Of a DNA stretch of 64,000 bases, positions 1 through 49,776 are shown piece by piece (position 1 is the first letter of the stretch; every line of letters starts with the position of its first letter). The position numbers and the translations under genes are program-made. Location: positions 28,007-92,006 of the forward strand of contig CAZNCN010000003.1 of NCBI GenBank assembly GCA_964571635.1, read 5' to 3'. The stretch comes from an uncultured Ruminococcus sp. (GTDB lineage Bacteria > Bacillota > Clostridia > Oscillospirales > CAG-382). The notes beneath the pieces are model-generated. The model was not told where the DNA came from, ran no database searches, and was given only the letters and a program-made list of their open reading frames with translations.

Positions 1-1412
1 ATATCGCCATGGACGGCTATGCCGCTCTCGGCAAGGTTCTCACCGAAATGACCCCTCAGCAGGTCATCGACACCATACTCGCTTCGGGTCTCCGTGGCAG
101 AGGCGGCGGTGGCTTCCCCACCGGTCGCAAGTGGCAGTTCGCTGCTGACCAGACTCTCGAGAACAACCCGAACGCAGACAAAAAATATGTCGTCTGCAAC
201 GCCGACGAGGGTGACCCCGGCGCATTCATGGACAGATCGGTCCTCGAGGGCGACCCCCACGCAGTTCTCGAATCCATGGCTATCGCAGGCTATGCTATCG
301 GTGCTGACCAGGGCTATATCTATGTCCGTGCAGAATATCCTATCGCAGTCGAGCGTCTGCAGATCGCTATCGATCAGGCACACGAATACGGTATGCTCGG
401 CAAGAACATATTCGGCACAGGCTTTGACTTTGACATCTCCTTGCGTCTTGGCGCAGGTGCATTCGTCTGCGGCGAAGAGACCGCACTGCTCACCTCTATC
501 GAGGGCAACCGCGGCGAGCCCAGACCCCGTCCTCCGTTCCCTGCAGTCAAGGGTCTGTTTGGACATCCCACCATCATCAACAACGTTGAGACATATGCAA
601 ACGTTGCACAGATTATACTCAAGGGTGCTGACTGGTTCGCTTCTATGGGCACCGAAAAGTCCAAGGGCACCAAGATCTTTGCTCTCGGCGGCAAGATCAC
701 TCACACAGGCCTCGTTGAGATCCCCATGGGCACTCCCCTGCGCACTATCATCGAGGATATCGGCGGCGGCGTTCCCGGCGGCAAAAAGTTCAAGGCTGTT
801 CAGACCGGTGGCCCTTCGGGCGGCTGCATTCCCGCACACCTGCTCGACACCCCCGTTGACTATGACACTCTCGTCGCAATGGGCTGCATGATGGGCTCGG
901 GCGGCATGATCGTCATGGACGAGGACAACTGCATGGTTGACATCGCAAAGTTCTTCCTCGAATTCATCGTTGACGAATCCTGCGGCAAGTGCACACCCTG
1001 CCGTGTCGGTACTCGCAGAATGCTCGAGATACTCACCCGTATCACCGAGGGCAAGGGCGAAGAAGGCGATATTGAACGTCTCGAGGAGCTCGCCAACATG
1101 ATCAAGACCAACTCGCTCTGCGCGCTCGGTCAGACCGCTCCCAACCCCGTTCTTTCGACGCTCCGCTTCTTCCGCGACGAGTATGAAGCTCACATCAAAG
1201 AGAAGCGTTGCCCTGCAGGCAGCTGCAAGGCTTTGGCACAATACGTCATCGACCCCGAAAAGTGCAAGGGCTGCAGCGCATGCTCGCGTAAGTGCCCCGT
1301 CGGTGCTATCTCGGGCGAGATCCGCAAGCCGTTCGTCATCGACCAGAGCAAGTGCGTCAAGTGCGGCACCTGCGTCGATGTCTGCAAGTTCGGCGCGATA
1401 AGCAAGAAATAA
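1..1412 (+). CDS. hydB: Bifurcating [FeFe]-hydrogenase flavoprotein subunit HydB (NuoF/51 kDa-like), 5' end cut by window edge
   Basis: The frame is open back to nt 1. Motifs seen: [10 protein letters not shown] (FMN/NADH site), [10 protein letters not shown] (4Fe-4S) and two C-terminal CxxCxxCxxxCP ferredoxin motifs. It ends 14 nt before hydA. Confidence 0.9.
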
Positions 1413-1426
1413 GGAGGAACATATAA

Positions 1427-3172
1427 ATGAAAACTGTAACGCTCACAATTGACGGCATTCAGGTAACCGTTCCCTCCACCTACACCATACTCGATGCCGC
1501 GAGAGAAGCTCATGTCAATATTCCCACGCTTTGCTATCTCAAGGACGTCAACGAAATAGGCGCATGCCGCCTGTGCGTTGTCGAGGTCGAGAGAGCCAGA
1601 GGCCTGCAGGCTGCATGTGTCTCCCCCGTAGGCGAAGGCATGGTAGTTCACACAAATACACCCGCTCTGCGTGAATCGCGCAGACTTAACCTTGAGCTTT
1701 TGCTCTCTAACCACAACCGCGAATGCACCAGCTGCATCCGCTCGGGCAATTGCGAATTGCAGAAGCTCTGCCAGGAGTACGGCGTTGACCGCTATGGCTT
1801 TGAGGGCTGCAAGACTCATACCGAAGCACCCGACGCAGTTTCGCCCTCTATCGTTCGCGACAACAGCAAGTGCATCAACTGCCGTCGCTGCATCGCAACC
1901 TGCAACAAGGTTCAGGGCATCGGTGCTATCGGCATGTCCAAGCGTGGTTTCAAGTCGACTGTCGGCTGCATCTATGGCAAGTCGCTCGCAGAATCACCCT
2001 GCATCAACTGCGGTCAGTGCATACTCGCCTGCCCTGTCGGCGCTCTGCATGAGAAAGAGTCGATCGACGAGGTCTGGGCAGCTATCAAAGACCCCACAAA
2101 GCATGTTGTCGTTCAGCCCGCACCCGCAGTGCGTGCTACCATCGGCGAAGAATTCGGTCTGCCCATGGGCACGGCCTGCACAGGCAAGCTCGTTTCCGCA
2201 CTCCGCAGGCTCGGCTTCGACAAGGTGTTTGACACCGATTTCGCCGCAGACCTTACTATTATGGAAGAAGGCACCGAGCTTATCCACCGCCTCACCGAGG
2301 GCGGCGCTCTGCCGATGATCACCTCGTGCTCGCCCGGCTGGGTCAAGTATTGCGAGTCCTTCTATCCCGAATTCATACCCAACCTCTCGAGCTGCAAATC
2401 TCCTCACGAGATGCTCGGCGCCGTCATCAAGAGCTATTATGCTAAAAAAGCAGGCATCGATCCCAAGGACATCTATGTTGTTTCTGTCATGCCCTGCACG
2501 GCAAAGAAGTATGAGGCTAAGCGTGAAGAGCTCTCTGTCGGCGGTCTTGCAGACATTGACGCAGTCCTCACAGTCCGTGAAGCTGCCCGCATGATGAAGG
2601 CAGCAGGCATCGACTTTGCACGTCTGCCCGACGAAGACTTTGACTCTGTTCTCGGCGAATCGACCGGTGCAGGTGTCATCTTCGGCGTCACCGGCGGTGT
2701 TATGGAGGCTGCTCTCCGTACCGTTTATGAGAAGGTCACAGGCAAGACTCTCGAAAACATCGACTTTGTCGCTGTCCGCGGCATCGAAGGTGTCAAAGAG
2801 GCCGAGATCGATCTCGACGGCAAGAAGATCACCGTTGCAGTCGCAAGCGGCACAGGCAACGCAGGCAAGCTGCTTGACGCTGTCAAGAGAGGCGAAAAGG
2901 ATTATACATTCATCGAGATCATGGGCTGCCCCGGCGGCTGCGTGACCGGTGGCGGCACACCTATCGTCGACGCTACCACAAAGTGCTATGTTGATCCTCG
3001 CGTTGAGCGCGCAAAGGCTATCTACGGCGAAGACGCAGGCAAGGCAAAGCGCAAGTCCCACGAGAATGAAGAACTCAAGACGCTTTATGCAGAGTTCCTC
3101 ACCGAGCCGGGCAGCCACCTTGCACACGAATTGCTGCACACCACCTATACTGCACGCAAAAAATATAACTAA
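1427..3172 (+). CDS. hydA: [FeFe]-hydrogenase catalytic subunit HydA (581 aa)
   Basis: It has an N-terminal 2Fe-2S/4Fe-4S ferredoxin region. H-cluster motifs TSCSPGW, MPCTAKKYE and EIMGCPGGCVTGGG are present. An AAGGAGG RBS lies upstream. Confidence 0.95.
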   Translation: MKTVTLTIDGIQVTVPSTYTILDAAREAHVNIPTLCYLKDVNEIGACRLCVVEVERARGLQAACVSPVGEGMVVHTNTPALRESRRLNLELLLSNHNRECTSCIRSGNCELQKLCQEYGVDRYGFEGCKTHTEAPDAVSPSIVRDNSKCINCRRCIATCNKVQGIGAIGMSKRGFKSTVGCIYGKSLAESPCINCGQCILACPVGALHEKESIDEVWAAIKDPTKHVVVQPAPAVRATIGEEFGLPMGTACTGKLVSALRRLGFDKVFDTDFAADLTIMEEGTELIHRLTEGGALPMITSCSPGWVKYCESFYPEFIPNLSSCKSPHEMLGAVIKSYYAKKAGIDPKDIYVVSVMPCTAKKYEAKREELSVGGLADIDAVLTVREAARMMKAAGIDFARLPDEDFDSVLGESTGAGVIFGVTGGVMEAALRTVYEKVTGKTLENIDFVAVRGIEGVKEAEIDLDGKKITVAVASGTGNAGKLLDAVKRGEKDYTFIEIMGCPGGCVTGGGTPIVDATTKCYVDPRVERAKAIYGEDAGKAKRKSHENEELKTLYAEFLTEPGSHLAHELLHTTYTARKKYN

Positions 3173-3193
3173 AACAGTATATTAACTGCAAAA

Positions 3194-3231
3194 AGCGGGC
3201 GCAGATCCTCTGCGTCCGCTTGACTTTTTTT
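3194..3231 (+). terminator. Intrinsic terminator after hydA
   Basis: A 12-bp stem AGCGGGCGCAGA/TCTGCGTCCGCT (one G-U pair) has a 3-nt loop and is followed by a T-run at 3224-3231. Confidence 0.8.
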
Positions 3232-3287
3232 ATAAATACTATTATAATGCTTTTATATTTATCAAAACCAAAACAAGGAGTGACGTT

Positions 3288-4079
3288 ATGGGATACGTAT
3301 TCATCAGCTATAGCTCTGCCGACAAAGATGCCGCCGAAGCTGTGCGTGCAAGTCTTTTGAGCCGCAATATCAAATTGTGGATGGCACCCTACGACATTCC
3401 CGCAGGTCAGCGCTATGCCGCAGTTATCACCAACGCTATCAAAGAGTGCGAGTGCCTGTTGCTGTTGCTCTCGAATCAATCTCAGGCATCGACTTGGGTC
3501 GACAAGGAGCTTGAGCGTGCACTGACCTATCGCAAGCCTGTTTTCCCAATGAGAATAGACAGATGCGAGCTTGCGGGTAGCTTTGAGTTTTATCTCGGCA
3601 ACCAGCAGATCGTCGATGTTGATTCGATAGAAAACGGTGACGCAGGGTTTGAAAAAATAATCAGCGCACTAACCCCTTATGCATTTTCCGCCGCTGCCTC
3701 GCCGCAGCCTGCCGTGCAGACCGCACATATCGAAGCCACGCAGACCTCGCAGCCCGAAATAGGCTATGGTGTGCTTTTGCACACAGACACAGATATAGAT
3801 ATACATACTGATGAGCAAGCCTCGGACGGCTATGGTGCTGTCCACGGACAGCAGCACGAGCCGGAGCCCTCGCACGCTGACGAAGGGCCCGCAAAGATAG
3901 GCTATGGCGTTTTTGTCGGAGAGCATAACGCCACCGACAAATATGGTCGGATAGTCACTCATGACGAGGAGCTGCAACCGCCTGCCACTCATACTCAGGC
4001 AGAACCCCCCTCCGAGGGTGGATACGGTGCTTTGACAGGTGTGCCGTCAGAGGACGGATATGGTGCTCCGGTGGGCTAA
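3288..4079 (+). CDS. Stand-alone TIR-domain protein with low-complexity GYG-repeat C-terminal tail (263 aa)
   Basis: The N-terminal ~130 aa are TIR-like: YVFISYSSADKD, then LLLLSNQSQASTWVDKELERAL. The tail carries five [IDG]GYG[AV] repeats. An AAGGAG RBS is present. Confidence 0.8.
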   Translation: MGYVFISYSSADKDAAEAVRASLLSRNIKLWMAPYDIPAGQRYAAVITNAIKECECLLLLLSNQSQASTWVDKELERALTYRKPVFPMRIDRCELAGSFEFYLGNQQIVDVDSIENGDAGFEKIISALTPYAFSAAASPQPAVQTAHIEATQTSQPEIGYGVLLHTDTDIDIHTDEQASDGYGAVHGQQHEPEPSHADEGPAKIGYGVFVGEHNATDKYGRIVTHDEELQPPATHTQAEPPSEGGYGALTGVPSEDGYGAPVG

Positions 4080-4100
4080 TATTTATTTATATTTTATACA

Positions 4101-4129
4101 TTGACAATTACTTGTTTTAGTGGTACAAT
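4101..4129 (+). promoter_or_regulatory. Sigma-A type promoter for the ABC uptake operon
   Basis: TTGACA, 17-nt spacer, TACAAT, with TG at the extended -10 position. Confidence 0.55.
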
Positions 4130-4172
4130 ATCCCGCATATAAGACAGCGGTGCATAAATATGCACATTTCAC

Positions 4173-4218
4173 CTGCAATTGACGCATTTTTTGCAGTGAC
4201 GTGCATGACGCACTTTTT
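4173..4218 (+). promoter_or_regulatory. Leader with two mutually exclusive hairpins (terminator-like plus candidate antiterminator)
   Basis: CTGCAA/TTGCAG (4173-4196) overlaps the 5' arm of hairpin 4195-4214, which is followed by TTTTT. A direct repeat TGACGCAyTTTTTG occurs at 4180 and 4207. Confidence 0.35.
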
Positions 4219-4249
4219 GTCAAATCGCCAATTGGCAGGAGGAATCATT

Positions 4250-5227
4250 ATGAAAAACATCAAAAAAGCTTTATCGCTCGTTCTCGCACTTGCAATGCTC
4301 GCAGTTTCGTGCCTTGCATTTGCCGCTTGCTCTGACAACACGAGCAAAAAGTACACCATCGGCATATGCCAGCTCACACAGCACGCAGCGCTTGACGCCG
4401 CAACGCAGGGCTTTATCGACGCAGTCATCGCCGAGCTTGGCGAAGAAAATGTCGACATCGATATGCAGAACGCTTCGGGCGACACCAACGTCTGCACAAC
4501 TATAATCACCAAATTCGTCAACAAAAACGTTGACCTCATCCTCGCTAACGCAACGCCTGCACTTCAGGCTGCATACAGCACTACTGTTTCCAACCCCATC
4601 CCCGTGCTCGGTACTTCTATCACCGAATACAGCGTTGCGCTCGACCTCGACAACTTCAACGGCACCGTCGGCAGCAATGTTTCGGGCACTTCCGACCTTG
4701 CACCGCTCGACCAGCAGGTTGACATGATCCTTGAGATCTGCCCCGATGTCAAGTCGGTCGGCATAATCTATTGCTCGGGCGAAGCAAACTCCAAATATCA
4801 GGTTGAGAAGGTCACCGAATACCTCACAAAAAAGAATGTTGTCGCCAAGGCATACCCCTTCTCTGACTCCAACGACATCATCGCAATAACCAACGCTGCC
4901 GCAGCAGAATGCGACGCAATTTATATTCCCACCGACAACACTGCTGCTTCGTGCGCAGAGACCATCGGCAACATCGTCCGTGAAAAGAAGGTGCCCACAT
5001 TTGCAGGTGAAGAAAACACTGCCAAGGCTTGCGGCATCGCATCGCTTTCGATAAGCTATTATGACCTCGGCGTGCAGACAGGCAAAATGGCTGCAAAGAT
5101 CCTGAAGGGCGAGGCAAACATCTCTGAAATGCCCATCGAATATGCCCCCGCAACCAAAAAATACAATGCCGAAATGGCTGAATTGCTCGGCATAACCATT
5201 CCCGAGGGCTATACCGCGATCGAGTGA
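4250..5227 (+). CDS. ABC transporter substrate-binding lipoprotein (ABC_sub_bind/PF04392-like)
   Basis: The internal ATG at 4250 has a GGAGG RBS. The signal peptide has a lipobox (LAFAAC). The motif YTIGICQLTQHAALDAA is typical of this family. Confidence 0.85.
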   Translation: MKNIKKALSLVLALAMLAVSCLAFAACSDNTSKKYTIGICQLTQHAALDAATQGFIDAVIAELGEENVDIDMQNASGDTNVCTTIITKFVNKNVDLILANATPALQAAYSTTVSNPIPVLGTSITEYSVALDLDNFNGTVGSNVSGTSDLAPLDQQVDMILEICPDVKSVGIIYCSGEANSKYQVEKVTEYLTKKNVVAKAYPFSDSNDIIAITNAAAAECDAIYIPTDNTAASCAETIGNIVREKKVPTFAGEENTAKACGIASLSISYYDLGVQTGKMAAKILKGEANISEMPIEYAPATKKYNAEMAELLGITIPEGYTAIE

Positions 5228-44958: not shown

Positions 44959-46428
44959 GTGAAGAAAATTACCGCTATTCTTTTGACTCTTGTCATGTCT
45001 CTTGCCGTGCTTGCACTCGCAGCCTGCCAGCCTGCAGAGCAGAACATAAAGCAAAAGCTGCTATCAGACCTAAAAGAATACCAAAACGTCAACCTCACCG
45101 AAAGGATCGACTCGTCAAGCCTCTTGGGCACCGCTTATAACGCACAGCTCAATATAACCGAGCTCACCGCAGGCGGCGAAGAGAACCTTTTGCCCTCGGG
45201 TCTGACTCTCGGCTATTCGACAGTCACAGACACCAACGGCTCAAAGCAAAATATTACATTCGGACTTGGTGACGACGCCCTCAAGCTCGATGCCATAATA
45301 AGCACAGACAGCAAGATGTATATACAGCTTGACGGCAAATCAGAGTTTTTCAGCTACAGCACGCTCGAAAACACAGACTTCGACGCAGACATAAATACCG
45401 CATTCGATGCCAAGAACGATCTGCAGCCCATTTATGATGCGATACTCAAATACGCCATCGCATTCGCAGAAGCTATTCCCGACACCGCCATCGACACCGA
45501 AGACGGCTATAGCATCAAGATAACCGAGGCAGACGTCAAAGCGATGCTTGGCTCTGTCATCGACACCCTCAAGGTCGACGAAGATGTCAAAGCGCTCATC
45601 GTCAAGTATGCGGGTCAAGAGGGCTATGACAGCTTTATCGCAGAGCTTGATACCGAAGACATCGACCTCGGCGAGGTCGAGCTGACTGTAAAAGAGACAG
45701 AAGCCGACGGTGCCGAAGTCACCACCACGGCATTCAAATATGACGGCACGAAGCTCGAGATTGTTTCGACCGAAAAGGACGACCATTCCACCGTCACTGT
45801 CAAGTTCACCGACGAGGACGAAAACAGCTTTGAAGCCACCTACGGCAAAAAAGGCGCAAAGGGCGAGGAGCAGTGCGAGTTCTCGCTCAAGTCAGAGGAC
45901 ATAAACATCGATTACTCGTCCGACAAAAAAGCAGACAAGACAGCGCTCAAGCTTGACATAGGCGAAGCATTCACGCTCACCTATTCGCGTGACAAAGCAG
46001 CAATCAACGCAAAAATACTCGTAGGCGACGAGAGCGGCGAAAAATCAGAGATACTCAGCATGGTATCATCCTCAAAGACCGAGGGCGACATCATCACTGC
46101 AGAAACCACCGTCAGCATCAGCTCTGAGGGCGTGATACTGCCTGTCAAGATCATGAGCACCGTCAACACCAAGGATGGCACTCTTTCGGGCACGCTTGAT
46201 TTTGAAGCGCTCGGACTCAAGGCAGAGTTCTCTGCTTCGCAGAGCGAGAGCACCCAAAAGGTAACTATTCCCGAGAATGCAACCGAGATCATCGGCGAAA
46301 CGGGCGAGGGCATTGCGACATTCATGGAAGCACTTCAGGAAATGCTCGAAGATCACCCCGACATCGCCTTGTTCTTCTCTCAGTTCGGCGGTATTAAAGG
46401 CGACGCTCAGCCAGACACCGAGTTTTAA
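44959..46428 (+). CDS. Hypothetical lipoprotein (489 aa)
   Basis: It has a GTG start with an AAGGAG RBS and a signal peptide with the lipobox LALAAC. The mature part is acidic and T/E/D-rich. Confidence 0.7.
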   Translation: MKKITAILLTLVMSLAVLALAACQPAEQNIKQKLLSDLKEYQNVNLTERIDSSSLLGTAYNAQLNITELTAGGEENLLPSGLTLGYSTVTDTNGSKQNITFGLGDDALKLDAIISTDSKMYIQLDGKSEFFSYSTLENTDFDADINTAFDAKNDLQPIYDAILKYAIAFAEAIPDTAIDTEDGYSIKITEADVKAMLGSVIDTLKVDEDVKALIVKYAGQEGYDSFIAELDTEDIDLGEVELTVKETEADGAEVTTTAFKYDGTKLEIVSTEKDDHSTVTVKFTDEDENSFEATYGKKGAKGEEQCEFSLKSEDINIDYSSDKKADKTALKLDIGEAFTLTYSRDKAAINAKILVGDESGEKSEILSMVSSSKTEGDIITAETTVSISSEGVILPVKIMSTVNTKDGTLSGTLDFEALGLKAEFSASQSESTQKVTIPENATEIIGETGEGIATFMEALQEMLEDHPDIALFFSQFGGIKGDAQPDTEF

Positions 46429-47108
46429 TCGAGTAGGAAGCTAACCATTACTTGATCAGCTGTCCTCTCACACCACCGTGCGTACCGATCGGTACACGGC
46501 GGTTCAATCATAAACAGTGCAGAGACTTGTATGCCTCGGATATGTCATAGTATCCGCGGTGTGCAAGTCTTTTGTTTGTTATGGTGTGAGTTAATATCAT
46601 CCGCATACTCCTTCACTTTGAGGATTGCATCCTTTGCACTTCTGTGCGGTCTGTAGCCGTAGCTTGCTATGCAATTTACGGATTGTATGACATGATCAGT
46701 CGCATTAATCGTCCACCCCTTCCCTCCGTGGTGATTAGTCACTTCTTCGGTACTATGAGCGGAGCTGACTTCTGCAAGTTCAACCGCTGCCTTTCGACAC
46801 GGCTTACTCCTATGGGAAGTTAGGAGCGTACCTTGCAGACCTCCTCGGGTAAGCGTTACCACCTTCACCTCATATATCTGCTGCATTTACACCCTGAAAT
46901 TCGGGCAGTATCGGACTTCGTTTTGTACTGGAAACTCGTCCGTTTCAAAATGCCTTATATGCGATTTCTGTTCGTCAGACCGAGGTTTTGCCGCCGACTT
47001 CCTTCAGACTCCACCTCACGATGGACACCATTGTCTTTGGCTAACAGTTCCTACTGCCAAGTCTGTAGCGGACTTTCACCGCCAAGTGGTAACACATGCC
47101 AAGCGCAC
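46428..47108 (-). mobile_element. Degenerate class C (IIC) group II intron, about 680 nt, with the IEP ORF largely deleted
   Basis: The minus strand starts GTGCG at 47108, 6 nt after the U-tract of the tRNA-Leu terminator. Domain V (46480-46511) has 9 bp, a 2-nt bulge, 4 bp and a tetraloop, with a CGC triad whose G pairs with U. Domain VI has a bulged A 7 nt before a terminal AT. The 3' boundary is uncertain by a few nt. Confidence 0.75.
46545..46886 (-). pseudogene. Remnant of group II intron reverse transcriptase/maturase
   Basis: The ORF contains GGKGWTINATDHVIQSV...SYGYRPHRSAKDAILKV, which matches the RT0/RT1 region. The rest of RT, the X domain and the En domain are absent. Confidence 0.7.
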
Positions 47109-47114
47109 AGCAAC

Positions 47115-47152
47115 AAAAAAAATCGACATCGCGATGCGATGTCGATTTTTTT
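47115..47152 (-). terminator. Intrinsic terminator of tRNA-Leu (target site of the intron)
   Basis: A 10-bp stem TCGACATCGC/GCGATGTCGA with a 3-nt loop is followed by eight U residues on the minus strand. Confidence 0.85.
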
Positions 47153-47153
47153 A

Positions 47154-47237
47154 TGCGGGTAATAGGACTTGAACCTACACGAAGTCGCCCTCACTAGAAC
47201 CTGAATCTAGCGCGTCTGCCAATTCCGCCATACCCGC
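47154..47237 (-). tRNA. tRNA-Leu (anticodon CAG)
   Basis: The acceptor is GCGGGTA/TACCCGC. The anticodon stem CTAGA/TCTAG has loop TTCAGGT. It has a long variable arm and a GGTTCAAGTCC T arm. Confidence 0.9.
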
Positions 47238-47291: not shown

Positions 47292-47320
47292 ATTATAGCA
47301 CAAACGGCGGCGGTTGTCAA
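47292..47320 (-). promoter_or_regulatory. Consensus sigma-A promoter for tRNA-Leu
   Basis: On the minus strand: TTGACA, 17-nt spacer, TATAAT, with TGc at the extended -10 position. Confidence 0.65.
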
Positions 47321-47339: not shown

Positions 47340-48104
47340 TCAAAAATCGATGCGAATAACCGCCTTATCGTCGGCATATGGCTTGTCGTACGGTGCGGAT
47401 GCGGTCAGCATCTCGTCTGTCGACATTGAAAGTATGCGCTCGACAGGCTCACTTTGCAGGAATCCCGCCAGTCCGTCAGAGCTGAGCAATATCGTATCGC
47501 CCGCCTTTATCTCTGTAAACGAGCTTTCGAGCAGGTCGGCAAGCTCGGGATCGCCGTTGAAAATGCCGTACGCCATATCACTCTCGGGGTGATTGCAGAC
47601 CTCGGCGTATATGCGCTCCTTGCTATAGCCGCTTTTTGCGACCGCAAGTGTCTGTTGTCTTGTTATCAGCCTGCGCTGACCGTTTGAAAAATGCAAGCCT
47701 ATGCAGTCGCCTGCCCAGACGCAGCACAAAGTGTTGCCCGACAAAACGGCGGCTATGCCGACCGCTCCGGGGGTAAAACGCCACTCTGCCATCGTTTTGC
47801 TGTTGCGATAAGGCATTATTGCGGCGTTGGCGTTCACAAGCACCTCACGCAAGGCAGTTTCGAGTGCCGTCGGCTCTAAGCCTGCGAGCCTTGGCGCTTT
47901 GGGCATAATGCTGTCACGCAATATCCTGTCGATTTGGCAGGCATAGCTGTCGCCCGAGCCGTCGTATTCCTCATGGGGGCGAGTTATGCCGTCGAGTATC
48001 AAAAACAATCCGCTTGCCTCATCGATACAGATAAGGTCCTCGTTGGGCTTGCCTATGTTTCTGTCGTTTATGCATGTTGATGTTGAAAGTTTAAAACCGA
48101 TCAA
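47340..48104 (-). CDS. PP2C-family (PPM/SpoIIE-like) serine/threonine phosphatase, 254 aa
   Basis: The TTG start lies 2 nt after the upstream stop, and a GGGAGG SD sits inside the end of the upstream gene. Motifs are KPNEDL, LFLILDGITR, VWAGDCIG, ILLSSDGL and DDKAVIRI. Confidence 0.8.
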   Translation of the reverse strand: MIGFKLSTSTCINDRNIGKPNEDLICIDEASGLFLILDGITRPHEEYDGSGDSYACQIDRILRDSIMPKAPRLAGLEPTALETALREVLVNANAAIMPYRNSKTMAEWRFTPGAVGIAAVLSGNTLCCVWAGDCIGLHFSNGQRRLITRQQTLAVAKSGYSKERIYAEVCNHPESDMAYGIFNGDPELADLLESSFTEIKAGDTILLSSDGLAGFLQSEPVERILSMSTDEMLTASAPYDKPYADDKAVIRIDF

Positions 48105-48106
48105 AA

Positions 48107-49624
48107 TTATACCTCCCGAGGCGCTATACCGAATTTGCGGCGAATAGCACCAACTATAAGCTCGATATGCTTTGTCGACGTTGGATCATCCGAACGCCTT
48201 ATAAAATCTCCCGCATCTGTAAAGGTCGATAAAAAGCTGACCATCTTTTCGCTGCCGAAATCTGCGCGATATATAGCCGACTCGTCGCTCTTCCTTATCG
48301 TATCTATCATTATTCTCGACGGGATCTCGCCCGTGAGATTGACGGCAAAAAACATCGAACTGATCATTTCGCCTGTCGACTTTGCCTTTGCGCACAAAAG
48401 CTGTATTTCTTTTGAAAGCGGTGCGCTCAAAACAGACTGCCAGCCGAGATAAAACATCACGCCGACGCAGTTTTTGTCGCGTATTCTTTCGGCGACTGTC
48501 ACATCCCAATCGTTGCCTGCGAGTACAGCACCGTGGTCATAGAGAAACGGAACGCGTCGCAAAGCAAGCTCGAGCATATCGCAATAGACACTCTTATAAT
48601 CACAACGGTTATAGCAGATAAAAACATATTTGCCGCCGTATGTGTTGGCAGGAGGAAACGACATCAGATCGTGCTCGCTCTCTGACTCAATTATTTCTTG
48701 CTTTAAAGAAAGAATATTGCTTTCGTTAACATCGGTGCCGACATAGGCTCGTGCCTCGTCGAGCTCATCCTCGAGGTCGAATATCCTCGATGATATCTCG
48801 TCACGCAGGCTTTGATAGTCGCCGACACGCGATATATAATCGCCCCTGTTGAGGTCCTCAAGATAGACGGCTTTTTCGCAATCATCGCGTGCATCATACA
48901 GCACTCTCAGCGTTTGCCCATTCGCATTTGATGTATCTGCAAGATAATAATGCAGCTTTGCACGAATGAAATAATATTTTGCATAATTAGAGTTGTATTC
49001 TATCGCAGACTCTATGGCATTGAGTGCAAGATCTCGGTCGTCGGCAGAAACACGCATATTCTTTGAAAGCATGATAGAAACCGTCGAGGCGAACGAGCAG
49101 CTCACGCCGACGTTCTCGACTCCCAGGCTTTCAAGCATTCTGATAGCACGGCGTGCATCGAACAGTGCAGCATCAAGATCATTCTTTTTTGCACCGCGCT
49201 TGTCACTGCGAGAGATGAGGTCATATACAAGCGGCATATCTCTGAATATTTCGGTGCACCTGTGCTCGCTGTCGTCAAGCAAAATATGCATTTCTTCGGT
49301 CTGCTTATCAGAAACATAATAGGTGATAAGGATAAAAAATGCCGCAAAGCCCCTGAGCCTTGTCTTGCTCGGAGGTGTCGTATATTTCTCGTCAAAGGCG
49401 GCATGGTATATGCGTTTTAATATATCCGCCATCTGCACACCATAGTTTGCGGCAAGCCAAGAGGCAAGATATGAAAACGAATAGTCATAAACGCCGTATT
49501 CTGTGACGAGCCTGTCAAGCATCTCGCAGACAGTCTCTTCGCTGACGGTGTTGCCAACCAAATGCTCTGCGTATATGCAAAACTCGACCACATTCGCTCT
49601 CATGGCTTCGAATGTTTCATTCAT
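48107..49624 (-). CDS. Helical-repeat (TPR-like) protein with C-terminal TIR-like domain, 505 aa
   Basis: The start is at MNETFEAM with an AAAGGAGG RBS. The C-terminal part shows a TIR pattern: KYVFICYNRCDYKSV..., PFLYDHG..., VGVMFYLGWQSVLSAPLSKEIQLL. No signal peptide or TM segment is present. Confidence 0.7.
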   Translation of the reverse strand: MNETFEAMRANVVEFCIYAEHLVGNTVSEETVCEMLDRLVTEYGVYDYSFSYLASWLAANYGVQMADILKRIYHAAFDEKYTTPPSKTRLRGFAAFFILITYYVSDKQTEEMHILLDDSEHRCTEIFRDMPLVYDLISRSDKRGAKKNDLDAALFDARRAIRMLESLGVENVGVSCSFASTVSIMLSKNMRVSADDRDLALNAIESAIEYNSNYAKYYFIRAKLHYYLADTSNANGQTLRVLYDARDDCEKAVYLEDLNRGDYISRVGDYQSLRDEISSRIFDLEDELDEARAYVGTDVNESNILSLKQEIIESESEHDLMSFPPANTYGGKYVFICYNRCDYKSVYCDMLELALRRVPFLYDHGAVLAGNDWDVTVAERIRDKNCVGVMFYLGWQSVLSAPLSKEIQLLCAKAKSTGEMISSMFFAVNLTGEIPSRIMIDTIRKSDESAIYRADFGSEKMVSFLSTFTDAGDFIRRSDDPTSTKHIELIVGAIRRKFGIAPREV

Positions 49625-49655
49625 ATTGTCGCCTCCTTTGAATACTCTACAAACT

Positions 49656-49684
49656 ATTATAATACACCGCAAAGCTTTTTGCAA
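49656..49684 (-). promoter_or_regulatory. Sigma-A promoter for the TIR-PP2C operon
   Basis: On the minus strand: TTGCAA, 17-nt spacer, TATAAT. An imperfect 8-bp hairpin overlaps the -35 element. Confidence 0.55.
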
Positions 49685-49747
49685 GCACAAAAAGCCTGCA
49701 ACCCGTCTTCTGTCAGCTTTTTGCACAACAAACGCACAATAAAACTG

Positions 49748-49776
49748 TTGCATTTCTGCATTCGTGATGTTATAAT
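49748..49776 (+). promoter_or_regulatory. Sigma-A promoter for the alpha-galactosidase gene
   Basis: TTGCAT, 17-nt spacer, TATAAT, with TGt at the extended -10 position. Confidence 0.55.

Follow-up and report, generated by a model that had tools for sequence, protein, structure and literature searches.

A probable non-autonomous, mosaic group IIC intron behind a tRNA-Leu terminator in an uncultured Ruminococcus

Is the short intron-like element between a tRNA-Leu gene and a convergent lipoprotein gene of an uncultured Ruminococcus sp. the decayed remains of a group II intron, or one that may still splice or move with help? The stretch analysed (the window) comprises 64,000 nucleotides. The original prediction placed a decayed class C group II intron at 46428-47152 on the minus strand, with its ribozyme core preserved and its reverse transcriptase (RT) reading frame gutted, possibly still spliced, or mobilised by a protein encoded elsewhere in the genome. 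We consider it very likely that 47108-46428 (minus strand) is a non-autonomous group IIC intron, mosaic in make-up, deprived of its RT gene, precisely inserted and matched to its site through EBS1. Two sets of relatives are used throughout: an ORF-bearing lineage (A-type) and a lineage of ORF-less mini-introns (B-type).

Insertion site and target pairing

The features of the site are as follows.

47292-47320, minus strand: consensus sigma-70 promoter for tRNA-Leu (12/12 hexamer matches), TTGACA-17-TATAAT plus TG extension
47154-47237, minus strand: tRNA-Leu(CAG) gene
47115-47152, bidirectional: intrinsic terminator, A7 + hairpin + U8 (U8 at 47122-47115)
47109-47112, minus strand: predicted IBS1 (UGCU), the final 4 nt of the 5' exon, forming 4/4 pairs (one G-U) with EBS1 AGUA
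46428-47108, minus strand: predicted complete ORF-less group IIC intron, GUGCG to CGAU, 681 nt (Rfam, empty site, fold z -4.65)
46931-46924, minus strand: predicted 8-nt EBS1 loop, CCAGUACA, with EBS1 = AGUA
46427, minus strand: predicted IBS3, the first 3'-exon base, T
44959-46428, plus strand: lipoprotein-like gene, 489 aa, convergent, stop TAA at 46426-46428

A single terminator is common to tRNA-Leu(CAG) and the convergent lipoprotein gene, and the intron is oriented like the tRNA. The hairpin (47145-47123; 10 bp, 3-nt loop) folds at -21.9 kcal/mol with a z of -6.57 on the minus strand, and it is a structured 5'-exon motif of the kind targeted by IIC introns. The spacer GUUGCU separates U8 from the intron, which opens with GTGCGCTTGGC at 47108. 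The insertion had been placed 6 nt past the U8 of a 10-bp hairpin, just after the tRNA-Leu terminator, and a sister species whose site is empty at exactly this point, TTTTTTTATTGCT joined to TAAAACTCGG, confirms this position and upholds intron-like boundaries against relatives. The 5' ends lie directly after a hairpin in 23/23 siblings found. The range first given does contain the intron but also takes in the terminator; the intron itself is 46428-47108, and its 681 nt agree with the expected size of about 680. At the other end, it had been said to abut the lipoprotein stop codon, and indeed the third base of that TAA is the final base of the intron (46428). The insertion displaced the terminator of the lipoprotein gene by 681 nt. 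Because it is sited between two convergent genes, the intron would be harmless, spliced or not.

On the tRNA-Leu 5' exon, no sibling EBS1 attains 3/4 pairs, and B-type EBS1s form 1-2/4. Over 12 elements, EBS1-IBS1 pairs number 42/48, compared with 26.3 +/- 2.9 when exons are shuffled (0/20000 shuffles equal), in a register that was picked after inspection of the data and that falls in the terminal loop placed there by the Rfam model. The T at IBS3 is shared by 10/11 siblings with a 3' exon read, the exception (L054) having a degenerate 3' end; it would fit a fixed EBS3 = A. If spliced, the ligated exons would read UUGUUGCU followed by UAAAACUCGG, with 47109 joined to 46427. To reach this site, the intron may have reverse-spliced into the terminator DNA, guided by its ribozyme, and then been copied by reverse transcription. 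The tRNA-Leu promoter (47292-47320) is the likely source of intron-carrying read-through transcripts, and intron RNA would now be made only through read-through of the tRNA-Leu terminator.

Ribozyme domains and class assignment

46847-47108, minus strand: predicted domain I, A-type lineage (RF02001; 88% identical to L045, 69% to B-type)
46715-46850, minus strand: predicted domains II-III, B-type lineage (94% identical to L051, L054 and L058)
46473-46502, minus strand: domain V, CGC triad with its G in a G-U pair, 2-nt bulge, GAUC tetraloop
46428-46471, minus strand: domain VI, bulged A at 46434 (seventh base from the 3' end), 3'-terminal AU

All six RNA domains are present, and the catalytic motifs are canonical. 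An Rfam covariance-model scan, proposed with the original prediction, matched RF02001 (domain I) at 47025-46852 (144.1 bits, E 6e-31, full model covered), RF01998 (domains II-III) at 46806-46716 with 33.5 bits, just under the gathering score of 35 (model positions 1-84), and RF00029 (domains V/VI) at 46504-46428 with 44.9 bits, above the gathering score of 40 (model positions 1-77). The Rfam alignment and the fold of domain V (upper stem 3-4 bp, CGC aligned on the AGC columns of the model) bear out the predicted triad, G-U pair, bulge and tetraloop, and the domain VI bulged A and terminal AT were likewise found, the A being the seventh base from the 3' end. The distance from the 5' end to domain V needs correction, from about 570 nt to about 606 nt. 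Domain I carries an AGGAA motif (GCAGUAGGAACUGU, 47057-47044) that is kept in siblings, and in domains II and III the helices persist with compensatory changes.

The ribozyme parts appear free of excess decay, in agreement with the predicted preservation of the core. Covariance scores equal those of ORF-bearing copies, with domain I at 144 bits compared with 118-143 bits, and private changes in domain I number 3 among 118 invariant columns, compared with 2-5 in the ORF-bearing copies. A 113-aa ORF at 46545-46886 was also considered as a coding sequence; it has 0 protein-family (Pfam) matches and was set aside as a chance frame spanning domains II-IV.

By its RNA, the 681-nt element is assigned to class C (IIC). 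Class C introns are distinguished by a CGC instead of an AGC triad, a domain V upper stem 2 bp shorter than in IIA/IIB, an EBS1-IBS1 pairing of 3-4 bp, IBS3-EBS3, AGGAA in the epsilon-prime region of domain I, and a terminator hairpin in the 5' exon (PMC1702495). The intron has the CGC triad, the short domain V upper stem, a 4-bp EBS1-IBS1, AGGAA and the 5'-exon hairpin. The proteins of its closest ORF-bearing siblings match solved IIC maturases best (GsI-IIC, 4e-87; E. rectale/R. intestinalis, ~1e-80; compared with 4e-42 for LtrA), so that RNA features and sibling maturases agree with the class first proposed. The class C intron-encoded protein (RT + X/thumb, no endonuclease domain) has no counterpart here, as no protein is encoded; the IIC assignment stands nonetheless because the class is RNA-based and holds irrespective of the protein (PMC4424553).

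Loss of the maturase gene and mosaic composition

46837-46853, minus strand: putative A-to-B switch point, a 17-nt stretch (CTTACCCGAGGAGGTCT) common to both lineages, also the point where contigs C3 (the window's contig) and C5 diverge
46665-46707, minus strand: 43-nt filler in domain IV, not intron-derived, 95% identical to the antisense of a membrane-protein gene start (G057:C46)
46596-46664, minus strand: RT scrap of 23 codons, SYGYRPHRSAKDAILKVKEYADD, from the RT motif 2a region, 87% identical to L045
46508-46594, minus strand: maturase C-terminus, last 28 codons plus stop (LTHTITNKRLAHRGYYDISEAYKSLHCL, then the stop), 93-94% identical to A-type

The RT/maturase gene is missing from domain IV, which retains 23 RT codons and the final 28 codons next to the filler. 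The RT scrap matches TIGR04416 over positions 96-120 (25 residues, beginning SYGYRP, E 4e-4), and the C-terminal codons, out of frame with it, make up the 3' side of domain IV. Aligning the element with full-length siblings, 1875 and 1892 nt long, mapped the deletions. This map, the TIGR04416 scrap and the Pfam-negative frame establish that the RT ORF was gutted, as predicted. The description of the maturase scrap was right in part: SYGYRPHRSAKDAILKVKEYAD (46664-46596) is RT-derived and the 28 C-terminal codons (46594-46508) had been overlooked, while GGKGWTINATDHVIQSV, also read as an RT remnant, was rejected, being the translated end of domain III together with the 43-nt filler. Two deletions could account for the loss of the ORF, one of the microhomology type and the other accompanied by filler.

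The membrane-protein gene in G057 that matches the filler belongs to another family, and its matching N-terminus is not conserved in homologues, most of which match only at the C-terminal SHOCT-like end. A search of the host genome found no counterpart of the filler. The 5' part of domain IV, here replaced by the filler, normally bears the high-affinity binding site of the maturase.

The main new finding of this analysis is that the intron reads as a mosaic of two intron lineages plus foreign filler. Compared with A-type, identity is 88% in domain I and 87-93% in the 3' parts, while domains II-III are unalignable except for a 39-nt core. Compared with B-type, it is 69% in domain I, 94% in domains II-III and about 85% in domains V/VI. 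B-type members (L051, L054-L060; e.g., JAZULS010000048, USHL01000110, URSI01000038) are ORF-less IIC mini-introns of 558-667 nt found at many terminators in Oscillospirales MAGs, and they have a conserved ORF-free domain IV of about 150 nt that is absent from the window intron. The window intron is therefore not classed as a B-type member, since only its domains II-III appear to be B-type and its domains I and IV differ. L084, the contig from the largest cluster of A-type proteins, was considered as a closer ORF-bearing parent; its domain I shows 90% identity, but its domains II-III are A-type, and it leaves both the patch and the filler unexplained. The domain II-III patch could have been acquired by recombination or RT template switching at the 17-nt stretch, the donor being a mini-intron in the same community. 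Accordingly, the term 'decayed' in the original prediction is too simple as an account of the whole element.

A mosaic of this kind could also arise if C3 merged the reads of two introns from the community, the true element being plain A-type or B-type. Contig C5 duplicates 74,859 bases of C3 at 100% identity, and the two part exactly at the A/B switch inside the intron. C5 joins a B-type domain I end to the identical sequence from domain II to the 3' flank (the 426-nt 3' part of the intron is identical), and its head is 95% identical to B-type across the domain I end and domains II-III. Because C5 carries this alternative B-type 5' end, the 5' third attached at the site is ambiguous in the sample. 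Related gut bacteria commonly carry B-type mini-introns, and the runs of identical bases that these have in common with the window intron reach 58 bases. Against a merger, homology at the left junction is just 17 nt and the filler junctions have none, which is too short to confuse a k=55 assembly graph (k as read from the 55-nt contig-end overlap); the EBS1 in domain I of C3 pairs 4/4 with the 5' exon here, compared with 1-2/4 for B-type; and both contigs run without a break from the A-type 3' part into the lipoprotein flank. We consider an assembly artefact highly improbable.

Returning to a real mosaic intron that lost its RT gene, it may nevertheless be an inert fossil, that is, a full-length IIC intron that degenerated where it had landed, by deletions and a patch of gene conversion, and that neither splices nor moves, its good ribozyme reflecting recent decay. 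Differences between the ORF scraps and intact relatives are mostly synonymous, as expected if the deletions are recent, and splicing would be under no selection between convergent genes. Internal deletions have clearly killed two siblings: L047 (335 nt, most of domain I gone) and L048 (without domain III). The element is also single-copy, with RT absent from its bin, and the exact derivative was not seen elsewhere in the genomes and metagenomes searched. However, every rearrangement left all six ribozyme domains and the domain IV base intact, and the filler without a counterpart in the genome is easier to understand for a chimera that arose at another place and entered this site later. In addition, the second 5' variant with an identical 426-nt 3' part suggests recent exchange between copies, and the related ORF-less family is demonstrably mobile. 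Considering both sides, decay in place is a real possibility, although we lean somewhat against it.

Helper maturases, mobility and known ORF-less introns

Being non-autonomous, the intron would need a maturase from another source, acting in trans, either to splice or to move. We searched the 82-contig, 95%-complete bin for RT (TIGR04416) and found only the scrap in the window element; RF00029 likewise found no domain V besides that of the window element. The trans-acting protein proposed to be encoded elsewhere in the genome was thus not found in this bin, nor was a full-length sibling with an intact one, and these are weak negatives considering that the MAG is incomplete and repeats often go unbinned. 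A second copy of the derivative was found neither in the genome, nor in 460 genomes of the order, nor in JGI metagenomes. In metagenome scans, the second deletion junction (TATGCGGATGATATTAACTCACAC) gave 0 matches, and an element-specific 20-mer from domain II gave one chance match in an unrelated epimerase-like gene. In plasmid and phage collections no close relative was found; the matches, about 80% over domain I, were to full-length IIC introns of the ordinary kind, one of them on a Paenibacillus sonchi plasmid and annotated with ltrA.

The opposite of a fossil would be a chimera that came to the site already ORF-less, was mobilised in trans by an A-type maturase, and is still spliced and mobile given such a protein, for example on a conjugative element. 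The foreign filler lies inside an element whose boundaries are nevertheless exact and whose target pairing is matched, and the ribozyme is undecayed. At least 7 MAGs carry B-type ORF-less relatives, which have spread there to unrelated sites, and RT above the family threshold occurs in 1/8 of the B-type host bins (the 7 and that of L061). Furthermore, an A-type full-length sibling adjoins a TraG/VirD4-like gene. On the other hand, the searches above found neither a second copy of the chimera nor a maturase in the bin, and the 5' part of domain IV is filler. The A-type maturase-binding (DIVa) region was also sought in the domain IV of B-type and of the window element, with local alignments no better than noise. 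Overall, continued activity seems rather unlikely. A related and broader proposal is that the intron is a hybrid that arose by exchange between autonomous IIC introns and free-living ORF-less mini-introns, and that it entered the terminator gene-less, copied by a maturase borrowed from the abundant A-type. We regard this as unlikely, slightly more so than continued activity; if true, gut Oscillospirales would host a two-tier, SINE/LINE-like IIC community, with parasites and hyper-parasites exchanging ribozyme modules.

Decayed or hitch-hiking ORF-less IIC introns are a known category, and the window intron is a further example. It has the same small ribozyme, CGC triad and short domain V as the terminator-inserting IIC introns B.h.I1 (Bacillus halodurans), O.i.I1, GsI-IIC and E. 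rectale IIC (PDB 7UIM), and also shares with them the 4-bp EBS1-IBS1, a predicted single-base IBS3, AGGAA, the 5'-exon hairpin and a site a few nt past the U-tract. Its closest ORF-bearing siblings encode, as these introns do, maturases without an endonuclease domain. It differs in having no RT/maturase gene and in domains II-III that derive from another sub-lineage. Complete ORF-less ribozymes descended from ORF-bearing kin are known from the TeI3-type introns of Thermosynechococcus elongatus (PMC2882425) and from ORF-less entries in the Zimmerly database (PMC3245105, PMC4424553), but those introns, known or presumed to depend on a trans-acting maturase, are mostly IIB and multi-copy, whereas the window intron is IIC, single-copy and mosaic. 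ORF-less bacterial introns are rare and 'almost without exception' share a genome with a related ORF-bearing intron (PMC4424553, PMC3245105); in contrast, the bin of the window intron, an incomplete MAG, has no ORF-bearing partner. The B-type mini-introns have the same size class and the same terminator targeting. Inactivated or deleted copies in the Dai and Zimmerly surveys (PMC3245105) resemble it in ORF loss by internal deletion and in being single intergenic copies, although typical ones also lose ribozyme domains, as L047 and L048 did, while the window intron keeps all of them with a full covariance-model score.

The window intron is thus a well-bounded specimen, with an empty site, matched pairing, a full ribozyme, mapped deletions and a domain-level mosaic. 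It would illustrate the exchange of ribozyme modules between ORF-bearing and ORF-less IIC lineages in gut Firmicutes, and, together with the mini-intron family, suggests that MAG-era data may revise the picture of ORF-less introns as rare and always partnered. Separately, the maturase reading frame of the abundant A-type IIC lineage is split at a slippery heptamer, in the sequence CGA AAU UUC GGU, and this A-type partner appears to need a -1 ribosomal frameshift for its maturase domain.

The intron and its insertion site

The stretch from 47108 to 46428 (minus strand) is almost certainly a real ORF-less group IIC intron. It comprises a complete ribozyme, inserted precisely and in the manner of class IIC behind a bidirectional terminator, and encodes no protein.

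Features of the intron and its locus (window coordinates)
47320-47292, minus strand: consensus promoter upstream of tRNA-Leu
47237-47154, minus strand: tRNA-Leu(CAG)
47152-47115, minus strand: terminator of A7, a 10-bp hairpin with a 3-nt loop, and U8 (fold -21.9 kcal/mol, z -6.6)
From 47108, minus strand: intron start GUGCGCUUGGC, separated from U8 by the spacer GUUGCU
47025-46852: domain I (RF02001, full model length, 144.1 bits, E 6e-31)
46806-46716: domains II-III (RF01998, 33.5 bits, just below the gathering score of 35)
46504-46428: domains V-VI (RF00029, 44.9 bits, gathering score 40)

The intron is 681 nt long, with a minimum-free-energy fold at z -4.65 relative to shuffles. In domain V the triad columns read CGC, whose G is paired with U; a 2-nt bulge is present, and the short upper stem ends in a GAUC loop. 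Domain VI bulges an A at 46434, 7 bases from the intron 3' end. The final intron base also serves as the third position of the TAA stop codon in a convergent gene for a 489-aa lipoprotein-like protein (44959-46428). Considering the Rfam matches, these domain V/VI features and the abutted stop codon, the original prediction of a group IIC intron behind a terminator was essentially correct. Upstream of tRNA-Leu (47340-49753) lie two genes, one for a PP2C-like protein of 254 aa and the other for a protein of 548 aa.

Hallmarks of class IIC include a domain V CGC in place of AGC, a domain V upper stem shorter by 2 bp, an EBS1-IBS1 pairing of 3-4 bp, an AGGAA motif and a terminator stem-loop replacing IBS2 (Toor et al. 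2006, PMC1702495). The window intron shows every one of them: CGC, the short domain V upper stem, a short EBS1-IBS1, AGGAA and a terminator stem-loop, which would take the place of IBS2. For full-length siblings (related IIC introns) with the same Rfam architecture, the best solved protein relatives are IIC maturases: the L012 protein matches the E. rectale IIC RNP (7UIM) at 5.6e-150 versus 1.3e-43 for LtrA, and the L044 protein matches GsI-IIC at 4e-87 versus 4e-42 for LtrA.

An empty site was found in a congeneric species (G020), where an orthologous lipoprotein gene (83% amino-acid identity) adjoins the same tRNA-Leu(CAG). Its sequence, ...GCCGATTTTTTTATTGCT|TAAAACTCGGTGTCGGG, equals the window's 5' exon plus 3' exon exactly, without the intron and with the TAA retained. 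At the G020 locus (L066 1549-1750, G020:C13), ~190 nt separate tRNA-Leu from the lipoprotein stop and contain two terminators, both with hairpins starting ATAAAAAATC; the window has only one A7-hairpin-U8 terminator (47109-47153), immediately after the tRNA. Comparison of the two sequences indicates that an inter-terminator deletion probably occurred in the window's lineage.

A hairpin stands a few bases before each of the 23 sibling 5' ends collected from related genomes. Of the 11 siblings with a 3' exon that could be read, 10 have T as its first base; the remaining one, L054, is degenerate at its 3' end. The 8-nt terminal loop of subdomain Id, as placed by the Rfam model, includes 4 nt that pair with the final four exon bases. 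Over 12 elements with 7 loop sequences, 42/48 EBS1-IBS1 positions are paired, versus 26.3 +/- 2.9 with exons shuffled (0/20000 shuffles reach 42), in a register that was picked after viewing the data and that agrees with the 3-4 bp pairing described for IIC (PMC1702495). The window's EBS1 (AGUA) pairs with its own UGCU at 4/4 positions, and the loops of other siblings all score below 3/4 on this exon. With the insertion in place, 681 nt more separate the lipoprotein gene from its downstream terminator, and the mRNA of this gene is therefore predicted to carry an antisense-intron 3' UTR.

Mosaic ancestry and loss of the maturase ORF

The intron is very probably a true mosaic of two lineages, one ORF-bearing (A-type; L045 and L044) and one of ORF-less mini-introns (B-type).

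Identity of window intron segments to the two lineages
Domain I (intron nt 1-258): A-type, L045 88% and L044 80%; B-type, 69% (L051, L054, L058)
Domains II-III (intron nt 259-394): A-type, only a 39-nt core alignable; B-type, 93-94%
RT scrap, C-terminal piece and domains V-VI: A-type, 87-93%; B-type, ~85% over a 47-nt domain V/VI stretch, ORF scraps unmatched

The switch from A to B falls within a 17-nt stretch common to both lineages, CTTACCCGAGGAGGTCT (46853-46837). Domain II and domain III helices are preserved in the patch, with compensatory changes seen among members of the B-type family. Such a domain-level mosaic of autonomous and non-autonomous lineages exceeds the textbook picture.

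The assembly bears on this reading. In the MAG of 82 contigs, C3:1-74859 (C3 carries the window, at 28007-92006) equals C5:66-74924, with 100% identity over 74,859 bases; this redundancy is ~4.4% of the assembly, near its reported 4% 'contamination'. The two contigs diverge inside the intron, exactly at the A/B switch point: the first 65 bases of C5 are a B-type domain I end, and C5:1-211 matches B-type subfamily 1 at 95% identity, unbroken over the domain I end and domains II-III. The sample thus has molecules that join a B-type domain I to a domain II identical to the window's. It is possible that C5 represents a second intron copy with an identical 3' part, whose tip the assembler ran into the same path, or that this site occurs in two variants. 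A divergence at the switch point could also mean that C3 is purely chimeric, but this is unlikely, as the homologies at the mosaic junctions (17 nt; none) are shorter than the k-mer (a contig overlap of 55 nt is seen), and as the domain I of C3 bears an EBS1 fitting this exon, where B-type EBS1s fit at 1-2/4.

Turning to the ORF of this mosaic, alignment to the nearest ORF-bearing siblings, L045 (1875 nt, G386:C16) and L044 (1892 nt, G360:C1), bears out the claim that it had been gutted. Only two pieces survive, joined out of frame: 69 nt of RT (46664-46596, SYGYRPHRSAKDAILKVKEYADD) and the final 28 codons plus stop (46594-46508). In L045, a 7-nt direct repeat, GGGATAC, bounds the interval missing from the window, which suggests a deletion by slippage or template jump. 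The RT scrap is preceded by 43 nt of filler (46707-46665), which resembles no intron and takes up the 5' part of domain IV, and GGKGWTINATDHVIQSV, proposed earlier as a maturase scrap, is actually a translation of the domain III end plus this filler, not RT. The filler matches, at 95% identity, the antisense strand of a membrane-protein gene start in G057:C46, from a genome belonging to a different family; the window's own genome has no membrane-protein gene matching it. The filler-like N-terminus is not conserved among homologues of the G057 protein, so either sequence may be the source. The counterpart (L014 5073-5119) is antisense to codons ~13-30 of the G057 gene, whose product has 233 aa and ends in a SHOCT-like region.

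In the RT scrap, synonymous versus nonsynonymous differences from intact relatives count 7:3 and 8:4, while the C-terminal piece gives 6:1 (versus L044). They are mostly synonymous, so the deletions are recent relative to the divergence of the lineage. Two further derivatives, both of related IIC introns, L047 (1266-1600, G350:C2; 335 nt, most of domain I missing) and L048 (271-800, G208:C14; 530 nt, without domain III), arose by independent internal deletions, indicating that this is a common fate in the intron group.

Ribozyme condition and proposed history

The element had been described as decayed with its core preserved. The core is indeed preserved: domain I, at 144 bits, equals or exceeds ORF-bearing copies (118-143 bits), and domain V/VI (44.9) lies inside their range (42.5-47.8). 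At 118 domain I columns invariant in 12 siblings, the window has 3 private changes, ORF-bearing copies 2-5 and the degenerate L048 37. No decay of the ribozyme is measurable. L047 and L048, judging by the domains they have lost, are plainly dead; for the window ribozyme, we see about an even chance that it is still catalytically competent.

We propose that reverse splicing, directed by EBS1/EBS3 together with the hairpin, brought the element or its ORF-bearing ancestor to this site, that the ORF would have been lost via two deletions, and that domains II-III would have been swapped with a mini-intron at the shared 17-mer. Present RNA would come only from read-through transcription started at the strong tRNA-Leu promoter, and any splicing or movement would require a maturase in trans. 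The suggestion that a trans-acting IEP is encoded elsewhere in the genome found no support, as a bin-wide search returned neither an RT nor another domain V. That the intron arrived already ORF-less and is still mobilisable seems unlikely. ORF-less group II introns have been described as rare in bacteria and nearly always accompanied by a related ORF-bearing copy, and inactivated copies as numerous (PMC4424553; PMC3245105); the window intron falls within this known territory.

ORF-less and ORF-bearing relatives

An exact-word scan found the B-type family, ORF-less IIC mini-introns of 558-667 nt, in 8 Oscillospirales MAGs.

B-type elements in Oscillospirales MAG contigs
Complete elements (7): L051/L056, L054, L055, L057, L058, L059, L060
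Example contigs: JAZULS010000048, USHL01000110, CAUFXR010000089, URSI01000038, JBJEOJ010000159

Their domain IV (~150 nt) is conserved and ORF-free, and they form two subfamilies, with identities of 96-99.5% inside each and 85% from one to the other. Each copy sits behind a separate terminator with unrelated flanks and an EBS1 loop fitting its own exon; the ORF-less architecture is therefore older than many insertions, and the family is mobile. A search of the mini-introns for the A-type maturase-binding region gave noise-level similarity only. An RT over the TIGR04416 threshold was present in 1/8 host bins (seven plus that of L061), a count to be read knowing that MAGs tend to lose repeats. 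ORF-less IIC minis appear abundant in bins without RT, beyond the textbook picture. In L061 (SVUF01000047, Oscillospiraceae MAG; 700-4470, minus strand), B-type pieces flank 3.3 kb with three ORFs (366, 333 and 300 aa). In the piece upstream, a 5' part, domain I is internally deleted and domain VI ends early, and the downstream piece has a second domain III end plus domains V-VI; L061 represents a pair of broken copies or else an intron carrying cargo in domain IV.

In the A-type lineage, the maturase ORFs of L045 and L044 are broken by the same 1-nt gap at CGA AAU UUC GGU, containing a slippery A_AAU_UUC heptamer, where ordinary IIC proteins read RNFKFLGF in a single frame.

Split sites in the A-type lineage (proteins P0001-P0120)
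L045 (G386:C16), 2540-2660
L044 (G360:C1), near 1078-1150, minus strand

The -1-frame X/thumb part is open for 148 codons with dN/dS of 0.07-0.08 (dS about 1-1.2), so purifying selection acts on it as strongly as on the RT part. Almost all of the best 120 protein clusters (86-99% identical) are 334-341 aa long and so terminate within the frameshift tail; one of these clusters comprises 2566 members, and the window's RT scrap is identical to best-cluster proteins over 22 residues. This makes a conserved (programmed) -1 frameshift or split maturase a candidate feature of a very abundant gut IIC lineage; no report of it turned up among the papers searched. Directly after the L045 intron lies a gene for a TraG/VirD4-like coupling protein with the Walker A motif GGSGAGKT (3013-4101, G386:C16), and that intron probably rides on a conjugative element.
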